A stretch of 64,000 nt of DNA, taken from Candidatus Egerieisoma sp. GTDB lineage: Bacteria > Bacteroidota > Bacteroidia > Bacteroidales > UBA932. The notes under the pieces were generated by a model. The model was not told the origin of the DNA. It worked only from the letters and a program-made list of their open reading frames with translations, and searched no databases. The stretch covers positions 32,043-96,042 of the forward strand of contig JAZRQU010000075.1 of assembly GCA_045650045.1 (NCBI GenBank). Direction: 5' to 3'. The translations under genes were made by a program, and so were the position numbers. Shown one piece after another: positions 10,871 through 61,852 of this stretch. Every line of letters begins with the position of its first letter. The stretch's first letter is position 1.

Positions 10871-10901
10871 TTTGGGGATTATGAAAATTTTTCTACCTTT
10901 G
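10871..10901 (+). promoter_or_regulatory. Bacteroidetes-type promoter for SRP RNA (-33 TTTG, 19-nt spacer, -7 TACCTTTG)
   Basis: TTTG at 10871-10874 and TACCTTTG at 10894-10901, about 5 nt before the predicted RNA 5' end. Confidence 0.6.
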
Positions 10902-10904
10902 TGC

Positions 10905-11005
10905 CCGGGTAAGTCATATACGACCAGCTCCTGCAAAATTCCCCCAGGACCGGAAGGTAGCAAGGGTATGCGGTTGTAGCGGTGCGATATATCAAGCTTA
11001 CCCTT
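10905..11005 (+). ncRNA. ffs: Signal recognition particle RNA (small bacterial 4.5S type)
   Basis: CCCCCAGGACCGGAAGGTAGCAAGGG matches conserved SRP domain IV (GGAA tetraloop closed by ACC/GGT, AGG / AGCA symmetric loop). 5' GGGTAAG pairs with 3' CTTACCC. T7 tract at 11004-11010; canonical promoter upstream. Confidence 0.8.
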
Positions 11006-11092
11006 TTTTTGTGCCCATACGTCAACTTTCTCCCCTCCTCTCCGCTCCGATGCAGCAAAACATCCTTATTTAAGCCGCATTTCCAGGAAAAA

Positions 11093-11352
11093 CTACTACC
11101 ATAGAGGGGAAATGTCCTGGAAACAGCCACTTTTCCAGGAGAAAATACTGCCACAGAGAGAAAACGTCCTGGAAACAACAGCAAAACCAGGAGAAACCAC
11201 AGCCGCAGAGAGAAAATGTCCTGGAAACAACACCAATTCCGGGAGAAACATCAGCCGCAGAGGGGAAATGTCCTGGAAACAACAGCAAAACCAGGAGAAA
11301 CTTCAGCCGCAAAGGGAAAATGTCCCGGAAACAGCCGCAAAAACGGGAGAAA
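11093..11352 (-). repeat. 52-bp tandem repeat array 1 (5 units, reverse orientation; unit starts 11093, 11145, 11197, 11249, 11301)
   Basis: Each unit ends in CC(A/G)GGAGAAA with exact 52-bp register. The array ends one base before the stop codon of the S41 protease gene. More degenerate copies lie upstream to ~11010. Confidence 0.95.
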
Positions 11353-11353
11353 A

Positions 11354-12937
11354 TTACTTTCCGGAAAGGACTTCTACCGCTTTCAATATATCCTTATCGT
11401 CCTGATTGATGAACTGGATGAAACTGTTGAAATCGTATATTGAGCGGATAATCAACGCTTTAAAATACATCCTTATCTGTCCGCCTGAAATTTGCATATC
11501 ACCCTCAGCAGGTGTAACACCTTTCTGGGCGCAATAAACAAGGAATGCAGCAATGTCTTCGTCTGAGACATTGTATTTTTTAACAAACTGGTCTACTTTA
11601 GGATATTTCTTAAGTAAGGATGCCCTGTGGGTATCTGAATACTGGTTCATGTAATCGGTCAGCAATCCTTTTCTAATGATTTCGCCATAGAAAGGAGTAT
11701 AGAATGTGGTATCCTGAGGGATAAAGATATCGGGCATGATACCGCCTCCGCCGTAAACAGCCCTGCCCTGCTTCAGAGTTCTGAAAACGGCAGATGAATC
11801 TGCAAGGTGGATGCTGTCCCTGTTGAAGTTTTCACCTCTGGCATATCTCTCTACTACCTGCATGTAGTATTCATCTTTCTTGCCTTCCTCGTACGGACTC
11901 TGGATTACCCTGCCGCTTGGGGTGTGGTATCGGGCTACTGTAAGGCGCAACGCCGATCCGTCGGGAAGAGGAACCTGCCTCTGTACCAGGCCTTTGCCAA
12001 ATGATCTGCGGCCAATGATAACTCCACGGTCCTGGTCCTGGATTGCTCCAGAGACAATTTCACTGGCTGAGGCCGAACTTTCATCAATCAGGATTGCTAC
12101 AGGGATACTCTGCAGAATACCTCTACCGTCTGCATACTCTTCCATCCTTGGCATTGCCCTCCCTTCGGTATATACAATGAGATCTCCTTTCTGAAGGAAC
12201 TCATTGGCAATCTGGATTGCGGTTACAAGATATCCTCCGGAGTTGCCCCTCAAGTCAAGGACAATACCTTTTGGCTCTACTGCCAAGCTCTGCAGTGCTT
12301 TTAGAAGCTCATCAAAAGATGTAGCGGCAAACCTGGTGAGTCTGATATATACAATTCCATCCTTAATCTCGTAATAGGAATCAATGCTGTTCAACGGAAT
12401 CTTGTCTCTGGTAATTACAAATTCAAGAACCTGTGGTTCACCTTTACGGACTACGCCAACTTTAACTTTTGTCCCTTTTGGTCCACGGAGATATTTGTGC
12501 ACCCTCTCTATTGTAAGGGAAGTGCCCGCAATGGTCTCATCATCAACTGAAACTATCTTGTCGCCGGCCCTCACACCAACTTTCTCGGCAGGACCGCCAG
12601 GAATAGTGGCGTTGATTGTAAGGGTATCGTTGATCAACGCAAATTCTACACCTATTCCGTCAAAATTTCCAACAAGAGGCTCATCCATGGCCTGGATATC
12701 CTCTTTTGTAATGTAGGAAGAGTGTGGATCAAGTTCTGTTACCATTGCTGCCAACGCCTTATTGGCAAGAGTTTCAATGTTGGCCGTATCCAGATACATT
12801 TTCTGAATATAGTAAAGTGTCTGGCCCAATTTGTTGGCCTGCATGGAAAGGTTGTTCTGTTTCTGGGCTACAGCCAAAACAGATATCATGCAGAAAGAAA
12901 CGGCAAGCAACAGGCTTGATGTAGATTTGCGTAGCAT
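11354..12937 (-). CDS. S41 family C-terminal processing peptidase
   Basis: Signal peptide ...AVA|Q, PDZ region, GNSGGY and SASASEI catalytic-region motifs. Confidence 0.85.
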   Translation of the reverse strand: MLRKSTSSLLLAVSFCMISVLAVAQKQNNLSMQANKLGQTLYYIQKMYLDTANIETLANKALAAMVTELDPHSSYITKEDIQAMDEPLVGNFDGIGVEFALINDTLTINATIPGGPAEKVGVRAGDKIVSVDDETIAGTSLTIERVHKYLRGPKGTKVKVGVVRKGEPQVLEFVITRDKIPLNSIDSYYEIKDGIVYIRLTRFAATSFDELLKALQSLAVEPKGIVLDLRGNSGGYLVTAIQIANEFLQKGDLIVYTEGRAMPRMEEYADGRGILQSIPVAILIDESSASASEIVSGAIQDQDRGVIIGRRSFGKGLVQRQVPLPDGSALRLTVARYHTPSGRVIQSPYEEGKKDEYYMQVVERYARGENFNRDSIHLADSSAVFRTLKQGRAVYGGGGIMPDIFIPQDTTFYTPFYGEIIRKGLLTDYMNQYSDTHRASLLKKYPKVDQFVKKYNVSDEDIAAFLVYCAQKGVTPAEGDMQISGGQIRMYFKALIIRSIYDFNSFIQFINQDDKDILKAVEVLSGK

Positions 12938-15761: not shown

Positions 15762-15898
15762 TTTAATTTAATTAACTACTAGTGGGTTAAACAATATGTA
15801 TAGTCTCAAATAAATTTTGAGCGCGCGAAAGTAATGATAATTGCGGAGTTAACCAAATTTTTTCTCCATTTTCCCCTGATTTTCTTCCCGACAGATAA

Positions 15899-16246
15899 TT
15901 TCTCCCGAAATTGTGGTTGTTTCCGGGACATTTCTACTCTGCAGCCGTAGTTTCTCCCGGTTTTGGGGCGTTTTCCGGGACATTTCACCTCTGCAGCTGT
16001 GATTTCTCCCGGATTTGCGGCATTTTCCAGGACATTTCACCTCTGCGGCCGTGGTTTCTCCCGGTTTTGGGGCGTTTTCCGGGACATTTCACCTCTGCAG
16101 CCGTAGTTTCTCCCGGTTTTGGGGCGTTTTCCGGGACATTTCACCTCTGCGGCCGTGGTTTCTCCCGGATTTGCGGCGATTTCCGGGACATTTCACCTCT
16201 GCAGCCGTAGTGTCTCCCGGTTTTGGGGCGTTTTCCGGGACATTTT
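15899..16246 (+). repeat. 52-bp tandem repeat array 2 (about 6.7 units, forward orientation; unit starts 15899, 15951, 16003, 16055, 16107, 16159, 16211)
   Basis: Consensus TTTCTCCCGGTTTTGGGGCGTTTTCCGGGACATTTCACCTCTGCAGCCGTAG read directly with exact 52-bp register. A degenerate unit lies at ~15847-15898. The array sits upstream of the rpsA start. Confidence 0.95.
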
Positions 16247-16359
16247 CTATGCCAGGCAGCATTTGCTCCCCCAAAAACACCATTAATCGGGAGAAAATAA
16301 AACCCCGTTGCAACATTTAGCCCAGAAAATTGTTAATCAACAAGAAAATACCTCATACC

Positions 16360-28366: not shown

Positions 28367-28439
28367 AAAATTACTGTTTTTTATGCAGGAGGGTGTCTTA
28401 ATAAGACTCTATAAACCAACTGTAGAAGATGTGGAATTT

Positions 28440-28518
28440 TCCACGCTTTCCCTACGGCGGTACTAACCGCATCAGGTTTAAAGGGTATAATCTCAGCCGA
28501 ATGGCACCCCCAAGCAAA
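28440..28518 (-). promoter_or_regulatory. TPP (THI-box) riboswitch
   Basis: The minus-strand read is GCTTGGGGGTGCCATTCGGCTGAGATTATACCCTTTAAACCTGATGCGGTTAGTACCGCCGTAGGGAAAGC. It carries the THI-box core (GGGGTGC, CTGAGA, ACCC, AACCTGAT, GGTTAGTACC, GGGA) with P1 GCTT/AAGC, ~78 nt upstream of the receptor ATG. Confidence 0.85.
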
Positions 28519-28532
28519 ATGTTAATAAATGC

Positions 28533-31611: not shown

Positions 31612-31919
31612 TCCCTCATCCCGACAAAACATCCAGGAACAGCCTGCGAAACGTGGAGGAAATGTTCTCCGAGCGCAAAATATCCATGAATGGACATCAG
31701 AACGAGGAGGAAATGAGTACCATGAGCAAAACATCCATGAATACCCTGCGAGACGTGGAGGAAATCCCTCCGCAGAAGAAGAATGTCCCGTAAAACGCCA
31801 CAATTCCGGGAGAAACTGCCTCCGCAGAAGAAGAATGTCCCGGGAAACGGCACAATTCCGGGAGAAATGGCCACGGAGATGGAGAAACATCCTGGTTTTG
31901 GGGGTAATTTCGGGAGAAA
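31612..31919 (-). repeat. Repeat array 3 (reverse orientation): three 52-bp units at 31764, 31816, 31868 preceded by three diverged 51-bp units (~31612, 31663, 31714)
   Basis: 52-bp units end in CCGGGAGAAA / TCGGGAGAAA; 51-bp units end in GGAGGAAA. The array fills a divergent intergenic region. Confidence 0.9.
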
Positions 31920-32012
31920 AATGCACCCCACTGAAAATACTTGTAACAAAGTGCAATTTGTGTTATTATTTTTTGTATTTTTGCATGATTTTAACCAAAA
32001 TACGCTTAAATT

Positions 32013-35907: not shown

Positions 35908-36501
35908 ATGACACAAATTGAGCTTCTGGTTCTTGCCATCAGTCTTACATTTGATACTTTTGCCGTATCAGTTGGTGGCGGAATCTCAATGCCAAATATG
36001 AAACTCTCAAGGAAGGCTATGGTTATAGCCTTCTTTGGTGTTTTTCAGGCAGCATATCTGTTTGCCGGCTGGTTTCTTGGATACCAGGCAGCCTCATTCA
36101 TTGTTGAATGGGACCACTGGGTAGCATTCGTAATCCTCACTTATCTTGGCGGCAATATGTTCCTTGGAGCTTTGAAAGGAGATGATTCCTCTGAATCCGG
36201 TGACGGCGGTGCCAGCAAACGCGATTTCCTTTGCATCAAGCGTCTTGCGGTACTGGCCACAGCCACCAGCATAGATGCAATTGCAGTTGGTGCTTCATTA
36301 GCAATGCTGGATATAGATCTGCAGAATATTGGTTTCACTACATTCTACACTTTTGTTGCTACAGCGGTTGCAGCCTATATTGGTTTGCAAGGCGGCAGCA
36401 AACTCGGCCACAAAGCCGGCAAGAAAGCCGAAATCTGGGGCGGTGTGATTCTGATTATCATAGGCATGAAGATACTCATAGAACACGTCATAACATTCTG
36501 A
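35908..36501 (+). CDS. mntP: Manganese efflux pump MntP
   Basis: Two DUF204 repeats (FDTFAVS and SIDAIAVG); 197 aa. Confidence 0.85.
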   Translation: MTQIELLVLAISLTFDTFAVSVGGGISMPNMKLSRKAMVIAFFGVFQAAYLFAGWFLGYQAASFIVEWDHWVAFVILTYLGGNMFLGALKGDDSSESGDGGASKRDFLCIKRLAVLATATSIDAIAVGASLAMLDIDLQNIGFTTFYTFVATAVAAYIGLQGGSKLGHKAGKKAEIWGGVILIIIGMKILIEHVITF

Positions 36502-36507
36502 TATCAG

Positions 36508-36536
36508 GCCCTCGGAGTTGCTCCGGGGGCTTTTTT
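36508..36536 (+). terminator. Intrinsic terminator after mntP (GCCCTCGGAG / CTCCGGGGGC stem plus T6)
   Basis: Arms at 36508-36517 and 36521-36530; T6 at 36531-36536. Confidence 0.75.
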
Positions 36537-36553
36537 GTTGCTGGAGGAGTGGT

Positions 36554-36850
36554 TTTCTCCCGGTTTTGTGGTGATTTCCGGGACATTTTCTCTCGGCGGC
36601 TGCAGTTTCTCCCGGTTTTGTGGCGCTTTCCAGGACATTTCCATTCCTTGGCAACAGTTTCTCCCGGAAATCCCCCCAGAATCAGGATGTTTCCCCTCCT
36701 ATACACAATTTCCTCCCGGTTTTGTGGCGCTTTCCGGGACATTTTCATTCCTCCGCAACAGTTTCTCCCGAAAATCCCCACAGAATCAGGATATTTCCCC
36801 TCCTGTACACAATTTTCTCCCGGTTTTGTGGCGCTTTCCAGGACAAATCT
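36554..36850 (+). repeat. 52-bp tandem repeat array 4 (forward; unit starts 36554, 36606, 36658, 36710, 36762, 36814) with two alternating unit subtypes
   Basis: Exact 52-bp register read directly. A-type units carry CCCGGTTTTGTGGCGCTTTCCGGG; B-type units (36658, 36762) read CCCGGAAATCCCCCCAGAATCAGGATGTTTCCCCTCC. Confidence 0.95.
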
Positions 36851-36861
36851 CTACACAGCAA

Positions 36862-36893
36862 CAAAAAACGTCCTTCGCTTCACGCGAAGGACG
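36862..36893 (-). terminator. Intrinsic terminator of rnpB (10-bp stem CGTCCTTCGC / GCGAAGGACG, T6 on the minus strand)
   Basis: Arms at 36869-36878 and 36884-36893; A6 on the plus strand at 36863-36868. Confidence 0.75.
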
Positions 36894-36897
36894 CTAA

Positions 36898-37325
36898 ATT
36901 GTGGGCGGATCTATAAGCCGAGTTCTGTACTTCAGACTGGTACCAGGAGGCACCCTAAGAAGTTCCTATCATTTATCTGTCGCAGCCTACCCCCCAGCAA
37001 CGGACGAGCAACCCTTAACTGCTGGTATACATGGCCTTGCAGGATGCAGTAGGATACCGCTATAATGTCGCCATCATAACCCGTGGGCTCTTACCCCACA
37101 TTTTCACCCTTACCGCAGTAATGCAGTCAAGCAACCCGAAGGTCTTCTGCTGCGCGCAAAGACTATGAAGTCTTGTAACAGGTACGTGACCTGACGCTTC
37201 TGCGGCGGTAATTTTCTGTTACCCTTGCATAAACTCATCGCCTATCTGTGCTTTCCACAGTGCAGTGCTCTACCCTGCCCGGACTTTCCTCCCAATTTCT
37301 TGAGCGATAGGACGACCCGCCGGTG
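36898..37325 (-). ncRNA. rnpB: RNase P RNA, bacterial type A
   Basis: The minus-strand read contains GGGAGGAAAGTCCGGGC and ACAGAACTCGGCTTATAG (the two P4 strands). It also has GCGGTAAGGGTGAAA..GTGGGGTAAGAGCCCAC modules and a P1 pairing GGCGGGTC/GATCCGCC. A -7 box TATCTTTG (plus strand 37326-37333) lies immediately upstream. Confidence 0.9.
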
Positions 37326-37387
37326 CAAAGATACATAAAATTCGTAAACCGCTACAATGAATAAGCGCAGGAGTAAATAGCGCAAAA

Positions 37388-38314
37388 CTATTTCTTTTTC
37401 CGTGTTGTGGTAATGGGGAACAATTCATCCAAAATACGTTCATCTATTTTTAGTATCCTCATAATCTGAGCATTGCTGGCATTGTAATCATACTTCATTA
37501 GCTTAGCTACATCCAATTTGTCATTTTTACCCAGCAATGAAGGATTTTTCATATCATACTTTTTTGCACAATGGCTGAAGATTGCGGCATATATCTCTTC
37601 ATCCGTGTAAAATATTGAATCACCCAACTCTCTGGCGATCTGCGAATAAGACTCTATCTGTCGGGAAATTGAACTGAAATAGTGTCTGGCGTCTCTAAAA
37701 AGGTTTTCTGCCAATTTAATATGACAGAAAGATGCTGGCGAGAAGTATCCCTGCGCTGGCAGAAATTTCAAATTTCCATTCAACCGGTATTCCCTGCATC
37801 TGAAAATTGATCTGATCTTTGAAATACTGAGTTCAGATATATCAATAGAAGTTTCCAGTTCACGGATTGGATTGAAAAAGTAACTATTGGCACCCCATGG
37901 ATAAGAAAACGGGGTGCTGTTTTTATCAACTAGATATCCGTTTCTATTTACATAACAAATAACAGCTTGCAAATGTCTTAAATCAGTAATTCTAAAGTGC
38001 TTGAACGATAATCCTTTCATATCTGAAACCCTTTCCTGCAACGACAAATATCTATGAAGTTTTTTAGTGAGAAAATTGACAAACCTATCCATCACCTCCT
38101 CCTCACACGCAACAACAAAATGAAAATGATTGCTCATTACTTCAAAGGTGAGCATTTTCATTTCATCAATTAAATTTACAGCAGACAAAGCAACCATATT
38201 CATCCCATAAACCAATTCATCTTTTGTCCTGAAAATGGCACTTTGATGTACTCCCGACGAACACAAATGCCATACAGGTCCCAACTCATAAAATTCATAC
38301 TCCTGCGGTGTCAT
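37388..38314 (-). CDS. IS200/IS605-TnpA-like HUH Y1 transposase homologue, REP-associated tyrosine transposase (RAYT)-like, with ~100-aa C-terminal extension
   Basis: HUH motif in SNHFHFVVACEE; ICYVNRNGYLVDKNSTPFSYPWGANSYFF resembles the Y..N(P)...YPWSS block of RAYTs. No tnpB partner. Flanked by inverted 52-bp arrays. Confidence 0.7.
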   Translation of the reverse strand: MTPQEYEFYELGPVWHLCSSGVHQSAIFRTKDELVYGMNMVALSAVNLIDEMKMLTFEVMSNHFHFVVACEEEVMDRFVNFLTKKLHRYLSLQERVSDMKGLSFKHFRITDLRHLQAVICYVNRNGYLVDKNSTPFSYPWGANSYFFNPIRELETSIDISELSISKIRSIFRCREYRLNGNLKFLPAQGYFSPASFCHIKLAENLFRDARHYFSSISRQIESYSQIARELGDSIFYTDEEIYAAIFSHCAKKYDMKNPSLLGKNDKLDVAKLMKYDYNASNAQIMRILKIDERILDELFPITTTRKKK

Positions 38315-38457
38315 AACAATTAAATTTAAGTTTCCGCAATACTAACTCCATATTTCCGAATATTAAAGTAAATGAGTAAAATCTTTTTTAGGAAAAAGAA
38401 AAACTTTCAGTGTTGCACTCTTTTTAAAAACAGCAATTTTTGAAAAAAGAAAAATTT

Positions 38458-38613
38458 CTGGATACATTGTGGTGAAATATCCTGAAAAATACCATAATTC
38501 CGGGAGAAAATGGTTCGGCGGTGGGGAAACATCCTGGTTTTGGGGGTAAATCCGGGAGAAAACGCTGCCACACAAAAAATGTCCTGGACAGCAATGCAAA
38601 TCCAGGACAAATA
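38458..38613 (-). repeat. 52-bp tandem repeat array 5 (3 units, reverse orientation; unit starts 38458, 38510, 38562)
   Basis: Units end in CCGGGAGAAA (38509, 38561) and CCAGGACAAATA (38613), with exact 52-bp register. Confidence 0.9.
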
Positions 38614-38654
38614 TCTTCAAGTAGGAAACCTCATCACTTGAGGCGTCACATATA

Positions 38655-61693: not shown

Positions 61694-61767
61694 GGTCCAG
61701 TAGCTCAGCTGGATAGAGCAACAGATTTCTAATCTGTGGGTCAGGGGTTCGAATCCCTTCTGGATCA
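61694..61767 (+). tRNA. tRNA-Arg (anticodon TCT)
   Basis: Hand-folded cloverleaf: acceptor GGTCCAG/CTGGATC, D-arm GCTC..GAGC, anticodon stem ACAGA/TCTGT with loop TTTCTAA, T-arm AGGGG-TTCGAAT-CCCTT. 74 nt; CCA not encoded. Confidence 0.9.
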
Positions 61768-61779
61768 CTTAACCAGTCC

Positions 61780-61852
61780 GACTCGCTAGCTCAGCTGGTA
61801 GAGCACGACACTCTTAATGTTGGGGTCCAGGGTTCGATCCCCTGGCGGGTCA
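61780..61852 (+). tRNA. tRNA-Lys (anticodon CTT)
   Basis: Hand-folded cloverleaf: acceptor GACTCGC/GCGGGTC, anticodon stem CGACA/TGTTG with loop CTCTTAA, T-loop GGTTCGATCC. 73 nt. Confidence 0.9.

Follow-up and report, generated by a model that had tools for sequence, protein, structure and literature searches.

A REPtron-like association of a Y1-HUH protein family with strictly phased 51-52-bp repeat arrays in Bacteroidales

How is a transposase-like gene related to the arrays of short repeats that lie on both sides of it? This question is raised by a locus in a 64-kb stretch of DNA from Candidatus Egerieisoma sp. (contig JAZRQU010000075.1), referred to here as the window, in which a gene on the minus strand (coding sequence 37388..38314) is bracketed by two arrays of 52-bp units. 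An earlier note on this DNA had proposed that the gene encodes a homologue of the HUH-Y1 (histidine-hydrophobic residue-histidine, single tyrosine) transposases, akin to RAYTs, the tyrosine transposases that go with repetitive extragenic palindromes (REPs), and that gene and arrays are laid out in the manner of a REPtron. Our analysis supports a REPtron-like reading of the locus and extends it across a family: the gene belongs to a large, unannotated subfamily of Y1-HUH proteins in Bacteroidales, which lies under the Pfam threshold, comes with arrayed, strictly phased cognate repeats and is a previously undescribed relative of the RAYT/IS200-type enzymes. The numbering of arrays 1 to 5 and all coordinates given without a locus name refer to the window, and L-numbered loci are homologous loci elsewhere.

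The gene is an open reading frame (ORF) with an ATG start and encodes a predicted Y1-HUH enzyme of 308 amino acids. The HUH motif (SNHFHFVVACEE) and the tyrosine block downstream of it (ICYVNRNGY...FSYPWGANSYFF) had been pointed out in the earlier note and are found as described: the codons for His63-Phe64-His65, read from the sequence, are located at 38120..38128 (minus strand) and those for Tyr121-Val-Asn-Arg-Asn125 at 37940..37954 (minus strand), with the putative catalytic residue Tyr121 encoded at 37952-37954 and Asn125 at position Y+4. Residue conservation was taken from an alignment of 40 homologues of the HUH protein, in which the columns of the HUH motif and, in particular, H63, H65, Y121, N123, R124 and N125 are invariant. 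As the set of H-U-H, Y and N(Y+4) is retained across 40 aligned members of a family with several hundred clusters at 50% identity, catalysis is probably used. In addition, the gene has a dN/dS ratio of 0.09 in comparison with L001, which indicates purifying selection.

The AlphaFold2 model of the protein (mean predicted local distance difference test score, pLDDT, 87.3) has the element order beta-alpha-beta-beta-alpha-beta-alpha of the IS200 topology, with the HUH motif on the strand formed by residues 64-69 and Tyr121 on the helix 112-129, which comes after strand 4 (residues 104-109). When the model was compared with the PDB using Foldseek, the best match was the E. coli REP-associated tyrosine transposase 4er8 (TM-score of 0.57 on the target, 156 columns), followed by the TnpA transposases of ISDra2, Sulfolobus and IS608 (2xm3, 2ec2 and 2a6o), and all four matches had a probability of 1.00 and E-values of 1e-3 to 7e-3. 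The HUH/Y1 fold, on whose presence the earlier note had staked its reading, is therefore predicted for this protein, and fold and catalytic residues are both of the Y1-HUH kind. At the level of sequence profiles, weak matches to Y1_Tnp were obtained for 20 of the 40 homologues (best E = 5e-4), and a search of the PDB with a profile built from the 40 homologues reached ISDra2 TnpA at E = 0.05.

The catalytic core comprises approximately residues 1-135 and is followed by a family-specific helical domain at about residues 140-300. The total length of 308 amino acids had been given correctly before; the C-terminal extension is, at approximately 170 residues, longer than the 100 or so assumed then. 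When the C-terminal half was modelled alone (AlphaFold2, pLDDT 83), the best Foldseek match was non-significant (E = 0.58) and scattered overlaps of 36-41 residues with helix-turn-helix (HTH) structures were seen. Pfam searches with the C-terminal halves gave no match, including none to Bac_DnaA_C, HTH_23 or HTH_28. An HTH in this domain, which the earlier note had thought possible, is therefore only suggested by these small overlaps in the structural model. The PHROGs and PADLOC libraries gave no matches. The terminal segment of the protein (...YNASNKQIxRILKLD...LFP), which is predicted to form a three-helix element, belongs to the best-conserved regions found in the family.

At the window locus, the gene lies between array 4 (36554..36850, plus strand), which consists of 5.7 units of 52 bp in two alternating subtypes with a higher-order period of 104 bp at 92% identity (Tandem Repeats Finder and a repeat finder), and array 5 (38458..38613, minus strand), which contains about three degenerate 52-bp units (units at 38478-38507 and 38580-38609) and is positioned upstream of the gene, approximately 145 bp from its start codon. 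The best match between the two flanks is the inverted one, so that arrays 4 and 5 bracket the HUH gene in mutually inverted orientation. Also enclosed in this bracket is rnpB, a complete bacterial class A RNase P RNA gene (36898..37323, minus strand; Rfam RF00010, 169.8 bits compared with a gathering score of 100), which has the same orientation as the HUH gene, begins 64 bp past the stop codon of the latter and ends in an intrinsic terminator (36867..36895, minus strand; 12-bp stem with 7 GC pairs, then a T-run), just 3' of which array 4 is found. Within the 64-bp gap upstream of rnpB, a TAtcTTTG box at 37324-37345 (minus strand) fits TAnnTTTG, which we take to be the Bacteroidetes -7 consensus, and would agree with a separate promoter for rnpB. 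Neither a tnpB-like ORF nor a second HUH paralogue was found in the 64-kb window. The description in the earlier note of long phased 52-bp arrays with two subtypes, of their inverted arrangement around the gene, of a complete rnpB with terminator between array 4 and the gene and of a missing tnpB partner is thus accurate for this locus.

The units are dispersed within the window. The unit core TCTCCYGG-N12-TTCCRGGACA, allowing at most two mismatches, occurs 24 times, and all copies lie within five arrays (0.00 expected from 100 shuffles). Besides arrays 4 and 5, these are array 1 (11083..11354, minus strand; dispersed, about five units), array 2 (15847..16314, plus strand; about 7-9 units), which is the largest and most homogeneous dispersed array, and array 3 (31625..31938, minus strand), a composite of three 51-bp units of a second, "B" type and several 52-bp units of the A type. 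Array 1 begins 76 bp past a Bacteroidales small signal recognition particle (SRP) RNA gene at 10900-11007 (plus strand). With array 4, which follows rnpB, this makes two of five window arrays that are located just 3' of a non-coding RNA gene.

Is the association of gene and arrays a peculiarity of this locus? For 80 homologous loci taken from species-representative genomes, we used a geometry test, in which a flank counted as positive when two or more units, each with inverted arms of 9 nt and a spacer of 12-16 nt, had like arms and were phased at 50-53 or 100-106 bp; 1-kb windows at least 3 kb away from the gene served as controls. Phased cognate inverted-repeat units were detected in 97 of the 150 gene flanks compared with 18 of the 646 control windows, an enrichment of approximately 23-fold, and the test was positive in 57 of 70 loci. 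The negative loci mostly have truncated flanks or arrays of slightly different geometry, which are seen by Tandem Repeats Finder. By this program alone, 42 of the 80 loci have arrays of approximately 51-bp period no more than 700 bp from the gene, and only 14 such arrays were located in approximately 1 Mb of distal flanking DNA. Typically, the distance between array and gene is about 160 bp on the upstream side, counted from the start codon, and about 30 bp on the downstream side, counted from the stop codon. The physical association of gene and arrays is thus near-universal, and the co-occurrence of homologues and 51-52-bp repeats, for which the earlier note had asked, is borne out for loci that carry the gene. 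The same units also form arrays without any adjacent gene, as in arrays 1-3 and in distal arrays of the same family at L059, L063 and L049. The inverted bracket, which had been taken as the RAYT-type layout, holds for the window locus and is a minority arrangement in the family: among 54 informative loci, the flanks are direct in 44 and inverted in 10, the latter including the window, L002, L003 and L006.

The layout of the units is constant. An arm of 8-9 nt, a spacer of 14 nt, a second arm of 8-9 nt and a linker of 21-22 nt, with arm centres about 22-23 bp apart, recur with unrelated arm sequences, for example GGAGCAGA/TCTGCTCC, TTGTGCAG/CTGCACAA, GGGGAACA/TGTTCCCC, TTGTCACG/CGTGACAA, CCGGCCACG/CGTGGCCGG and GTCTGTCCACC/GGTGGACGGAC. 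Across 22 arm families, the spacer has the composition W4-S6-W4 and the four inner arm bases tend to CACA/TGTG. Of the arrays near the genes, 55 have a period of 51 bp, four of 52 bp, one of 50 bp, four of 93-94 bp and two of 112-113 bp; in the window genome the period is 52 bp, with the units head-to-tail. Arrays usually begin at a left arm and stop right after a right arm, and higher-order periods of 104 and 153-156 bp occur. The geometry is therefore constant despite complete turnover of the sequence, and the exactness of the 51-bp period through this turnover argues for a length constraint imposed by a protein. In some clades with longer periods, the unit of 93-94 or 112-113 bp contains two inverted repeats of the GGGCAC or GGCCAC type in place of the 51-bp layout (L011 9027-11592, L072 9393-9742, L078 9502-9743 and L057 1-1778).

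Several other properties of the units were considered. A strand-specific wobble test, meant to tell hairpin from duplex recognition, gave 85 A·C and 49 G·T mismatches in the arms on the A-rich strand, which is uninformative because the ratio is that expected from base composition. A unit polarity common to the families was sought in the GC skew of spacers and linkers, which proved too noisy, and by eye the units do not keep to one orientation with respect to the gene. The possibility that the arrays are coding repeats (51 bp being 17 codons) was rejected, as the period is 52 bp here and the arrays occur in both orientations and in intergenic DNA. Long ORFs in several frames do run through the arrays and across rnpB (36231-37052 and 36535-36897, plus strand; 38363-38620, minus strand); they arise from the repetition and are artefacts rather than genes. 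A search of an array with Rfam at relaxed threshold returned noise only. A metagenome scan for the window unit gave no matches with a strict pattern in a collection that barely contains the organism, and with a loose pattern 15 mostly single, probably chance matches and one real 52-bp array (L093).

The arm sequences correspond to the protein clusters. Pairs of proteins with at least 70% identity have, on average, 8.0 of 9 arm bases in common compared with about 5 of 9 otherwise, and the correlation between protein and arm (Mantel r = 0.31) was reached in none of 2000 permutations. Moreover, single metagenome-assembled genomes (MAGs) encode up to three paralogues, which are about 40% identical and carry different arms, and the same paralogue-arm pairs recur in other MAGs. 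Examples are MAG SUYX01 with L027 (TTGTCAC arm), L034 (GGGGAACA arm) and L076, and MAG JAZNUM with L011, L015 and L024. Judged by these sequence comparisons, the arms appear to be specific for both clade and paralogue.

The position of rnpB within the bracket is a conserved trait of one orthologous clade and not an accident. In the window and in L001-L007, which span 88% to 44% protein identity, rnpB comes after the HUH gene in the same orientation; in L017 it is 1.4 kb away on the opposite strand, and it is absent from the vicinity of the gene in the other 71 loci. In the rnpB-linked clade, the downstream array begins just past the rnpB terminator, so that rnpB fills a slot that is about 30 bp in other paralogues. 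Within this clade, neighbouring genes are far better conserved than the HUH gene: between the window and L001/L002, RecR is 99.5%, a transporter 99% and a CdsB-like protein 96-98% identical, compared with 88% (L001) and 75% (L002) for the HUH protein. Between the HUH genes of the window (37388-38314) and L002 (10001-10915) dS is saturated, with values of 0.11-0.42 for the neighbours and 96% nucleotide identity for rnpB, which suggests that the HUH allele in L002 has been replaced or evolves far faster than its surroundings. The arrays that flank it in L002 (9543-9838 and 11606-11926) consist of the B-type unit (arms ATCCAyG...GTGGAGG), which in the window is present in array 3 only. Since array 3 is composite and L002 has B-type flanks, both unit types coexist in these genomes and the type that flanks the gene has switched. 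Furthermore, the cassette of HUH gene and rnpB (window 36856-38460; L002 9856-11564) is inverted in L002 with respect to collinear flanks, L006 has it turned round in the same way when the CdsB-like neighbour gene is taken as reference, and in L003 the whole module sits elsewhere relative to the same conserved neighbours. Array sites are shared by the window, L001 and L002 with different copy numbers, for example by 104 bp (two units) in array 4, and an array of another copy number is also present at the array-3 site in L001 and L002. A thiamine pyrophosphate (TPP) riboswitch at 28432-28521 (minus strand) served as a synteny marker with L001, L002 and L006; like two tRNA genes at 61694-61852 (plus strand), it is unrelated to the finding.

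With an E-value cut-off of 1e-30, the family comprises 413 clusters at 50% identity. Members are encoded in Bacteroidales MAGs from rumen and gut assigned to Egerieisoma, Cryptobacteroides, Coprenecus, "Rikenellaceae" and "Muribaculaceae"; they are annotated as "hypothetical protein" at NCBI, and some are called "REP element-mobilizing transposase RayT" in IMG. The literature that we searched yielded neither an account of this family nor one of 51-bp arrays in Bacteroidales. No plasmid relatives were found, and 2.9 million viral contigs yielded only two matches. These two relatives, L081 and L082, are IMG/VR contigs, the L081 match lies at the contig end, and no arrays were detected in the available DNA of either. 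No near-identical copies of the gene were seen within one genome, the loci being derived from MAGs. Public contigs carrying family members are mostly 1.1-1.5 kb long and consist of the gene with stubs of the arrays, which indicates that metagenome assemblies routinely break in the flanking arrays.

We propose that the locus is a REPtron-type module, in which a domesticated, vertically inherited chromosomal Y1-HUH enzyme is paired with its own cognate repeat family, and consider this explanation rather probable. Domestication is indicated by rnpB synteny that is kept from 88% to 44% identity, by the low dN/dS ratio, by the missing plasmid relatives and by the mere two viral matches. By analogy with RAYT and TnpA proteins, which act on hairpins that are single-stranded during replication, the enzyme would recognise the units and nick and rejoin DNA there, and this activity could seed, maintain or homogenise the arrays. 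The variable outer arms would be the specificity determinants and be read by variable parts of the protein, and the conserved inner arm and spacer could be read by conserved parts, including the terminal three-helix element. A fixed reach of the enzyme from the palindrome may set the invariant unit length. Unequal recombination or events involving several units may also expand the arrays, as suggested by the higher-order periods (104 and 153-156 bp). In some lineages, the cassette of HUH gene and rnpB could have been flipped by recombination between its flanking arrays. One could go further and speculate that each 51-nt unit is itself mobile, namely a single-stranded DNA (ssDNA) element with one palindrome, which is cut at fixed distances on each side, circularised and re-inserted beside its own copy, with the protein serving as a molecular ruler. 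This would explain why exactly 51 bp are found in lineages with otherwise unrelated repeat sequences, and we nevertheless think it quite unlikely. If it were true, no enzyme-defined transposable unit smaller than these 51-nt units would be known, and the family would present enzyme-arm specificities as a natural matrix.

Several observations weigh against the REPtron-type explanation. The profile searches that the earlier note had suggested point weakly to the same family and stay under their thresholds: Pfam Y1_Tnp (PF01797) scores 16.3 bits compared with a threshold of 23 (E = 0.011) and covers residues 49-90 only, and NCBIfam REP_Tyr_transpos scores 12.2 bits, far under its cut-off of 80 (E = 0.12). 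The tyrosine motif is YVNRNG and not the YIxxNP of class 2, with the N at Y+4 kept and P replaced by G, which speaks against membership among the RAYTs. The window unit (TCCCGG-N14-CCGGGA) has a stem of only 6 bp with a 14-nt loop and as ssDNA is not more stable than shuffled sequences (z = -0.4 and -1.3), so that recognition as a hairpin is not self-evident in the window, and a dimer on duplex DNA would match the geometry just as well. The positional stability of the arrays between related genomes shows persistence and not ongoing transposition. Finally, the covariation of arm and protein is supportive and not conclusive, as it is partly confounded by the shared descent of whole loci. Some of these points lead to an alternative in which the arrays are binding sites on duplex DNA, comparable to operators or iterons: dimers would contact both inverted arms, which are two helical turns apart, and a period of 51-52 bp, or five turns, would place them on one face of the DNA. 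The resulting cooperative nucleoprotein structure would autoregulate the gene and insulate or organise neighbouring DNA, for instance 3' of highly expressed RNA genes, and the HUH site would at most nick topologically. A geometry and strict period kept through complete sequence turnover, the weak hairpin potential in this genome, an array that most loci have some 160 bp before the start codon, where an operator might be expected, and the two of five window arrays that follow non-coding RNA genes would all fit such a role, as would the most conserved C-terminal segment being a three-helix element and the only fold matches of this domain being to HTH structures, if non-significant ones. However, the invariance of the full catalytic set in the 40 homologues argues that catalysis is used, other arm families fold strongly (z = -2.2 to -5.4), no HTH family is recognised by Pfam and none significantly by Foldseek, and spread to many varied intergenic sites characterises REP-like elements more than it does operators. 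On balance, we regard duplex binding sites as unlikely.

The remaining alternatives concern the mobility and origin of the module. If gene and flanking arrays were an active, autonomous insertion sequence (IS) of the IS200/IS605 type, whose end hairpins had been amplified into arrays, one would expect same-strand repeats at the left and right ends, as is the case in the 44 direct loci, and several paralogues per genome; the different location of the L003 module and the strongly diverged HUH allele of L002 amid well-conserved neighbours could be read in the same way. Paralogues of one genome are, however, only about 40% identical with different arms and without near-identical copies being seen, the linkage to rnpB persists down to 44% identity, plasmid matches are lacking and phage collections contain almost none, there is no tnpB partner, and arrays of the same unit occur without any gene, all of which makes an active IS highly improbable. 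We assign only a very slight probability to the idea that the arrays serve mainly as recombination substrates of an invertible cassette, in which the segment with HUH gene and rnpB would be flipped either by the HUH enzyme or by the action of RecA on the inverted arrays. The inversion of segment 36856-38460 in L002, the corresponding orientation in L006 and the inverted flanking arrays in the window, L002, L003 and L006 would fit this idea, but the inversions are, as observed, fixed differences between species, in most of the family the arrays are direct and rnpB is missing, and as rnpB has its own terminator and a putative TAnnTTTG box upstream, no consequence of flipping for its expression is evident. 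That the arrays are ordinary tandem repeats, which arose by slippage and lie next to the gene by coincidence, is barely credible: generic unequal recombination would account for the higher-order periods and for copy-number differences at orthologous sites, but not for the roughly 23-fold enrichment beside the gene, for arms that differ by clade and paralogue or for a 51-bp geometry that recurs with unrelated sequences in dozens of lineages. An origin of a rolling-circle-replicating plasmid or an integrative and conjugative element with iterons was rejected, given that the arrays lie at many places in the chromosome and that relatives are lacking on plasmids and almost lacking among phages.

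The function of RAYT-type enzymes and the spread and persistence of REP-like repeats have been debated for decades, and to our knowledge almost all of this work was done on Proteobacteria. The family described here lives in abundant, uncultured Bacteroidales of gut and rumen and goes unseen at Pfam and NCBIfam thresholds. Its many paralogues, each with its own arm on a constant 51-bp scaffold, come close to a ready-made specificity code, and the strict length constraint calls for a structural explanation. A practical warning is that the arrays fragment metagenome assemblies around the HUH genes. With an essential RNA gene, rnpB, kept inside the module and inverted between species, the arrays also shape local chromosome architecture.

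Among known systems, the REPtron of E. coli with its RAYT, TnpA-REP (YafM), is similar in that the enzyme has the same Y1-HUH fold, 4er8 being the best structural match, and in that a low-copy chromosomal gene is flanked by its own palindromic repeats, which are also present at many intergenic sites. The BIME-2 arrays (bacterial interspersed mosaic elements) of E. coli are similar as well, with clustered repeats and alternating subtypes. A polar residue at Y+4 is shared, the motif being Y-x3-Q in TnpA and Y-I-x-x-N-P in RAYTs. In contrast to the E. coli RAYT, the protein described here is twice as long owing to its 170-amino-acid C-terminal domain, and its repeats are head-to-tail direct units with a strict 51-52-bp period, whereas inverted REP pairs are found in E. 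coli. The conserved GTAG/CGTC tetranucleotide of REPs is absent from the units, whose palindrome has short arms of 8-9 nt and a 14-nt spacer. The TnpA proteins of the IS200/IS605 elements IS608 and ISDra2 have the same fold and catalytic residues, and repeats on the same strand on both sides are common to them and to most of our loci. They differ from the family studied here, which is not a multi-copy IS, has no tnpB, retains conserved synteny, stays under the Pfam threshold and is flanked by arrays rather than by single subterminal hairpins.

Class 2 TnpA-Y1 proteins with a C-terminal HTH, and terminal inverted repeat-associated tyrosine transposases (TIRYTs) that are flanked by their own repeats, have been described (PMC6006769, PMC3733652). 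The TIRYTs, or TnpA-Y1 subclass 2.1, with their "TIRtrons" (PMC3733652, PMC6006769) resemble our family in a longer RAYT-like protein, in an HUH motif of the NH[YF]H type (here NHFH) and in a C-terminal extension that may be of a DNA-binding kind; in both, short flanking repeats are able to form dispersed families, and several genes per genome each have different repeats. In our family, by comparison, Bac_DnaA_C, HTH_23 and HTH_28 are not matched, the tyrosine motif is different, the GGGGWSAS sequence is not general, with inner arms tending to CACA instead, and the distribution is restricted to Bacteroidales. Moreover, the flanks are arrays of palindromic 51-bp units, direct in 44 of 54 loci, whereas TIRYTs have one terminal inverted repeat per side, usually with GGGGWSAS. 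In Pseudomonas fluorescens SBW25, clusters of REPINs (REP doublets forming hairpins) are located beside each of three RAYT genes, and tandem REP arrays of the GI and GIII groups are present too (PMC3116915). The REPIN-RAYT system of SBW25 is similar to ours in having several paralogous enzymes per genome, each next to its own repeat cluster, and in its vertical persistence (PMC3116915). In SBW25, it is the inverted REP doublet that replicates, and arrays, which there have a period of approximately 184 bp, are the exception (PMC3116915), whereas in the Bacteroidales family, whose period is kept across all of the protein family, arrays of single palindromes are the rule.

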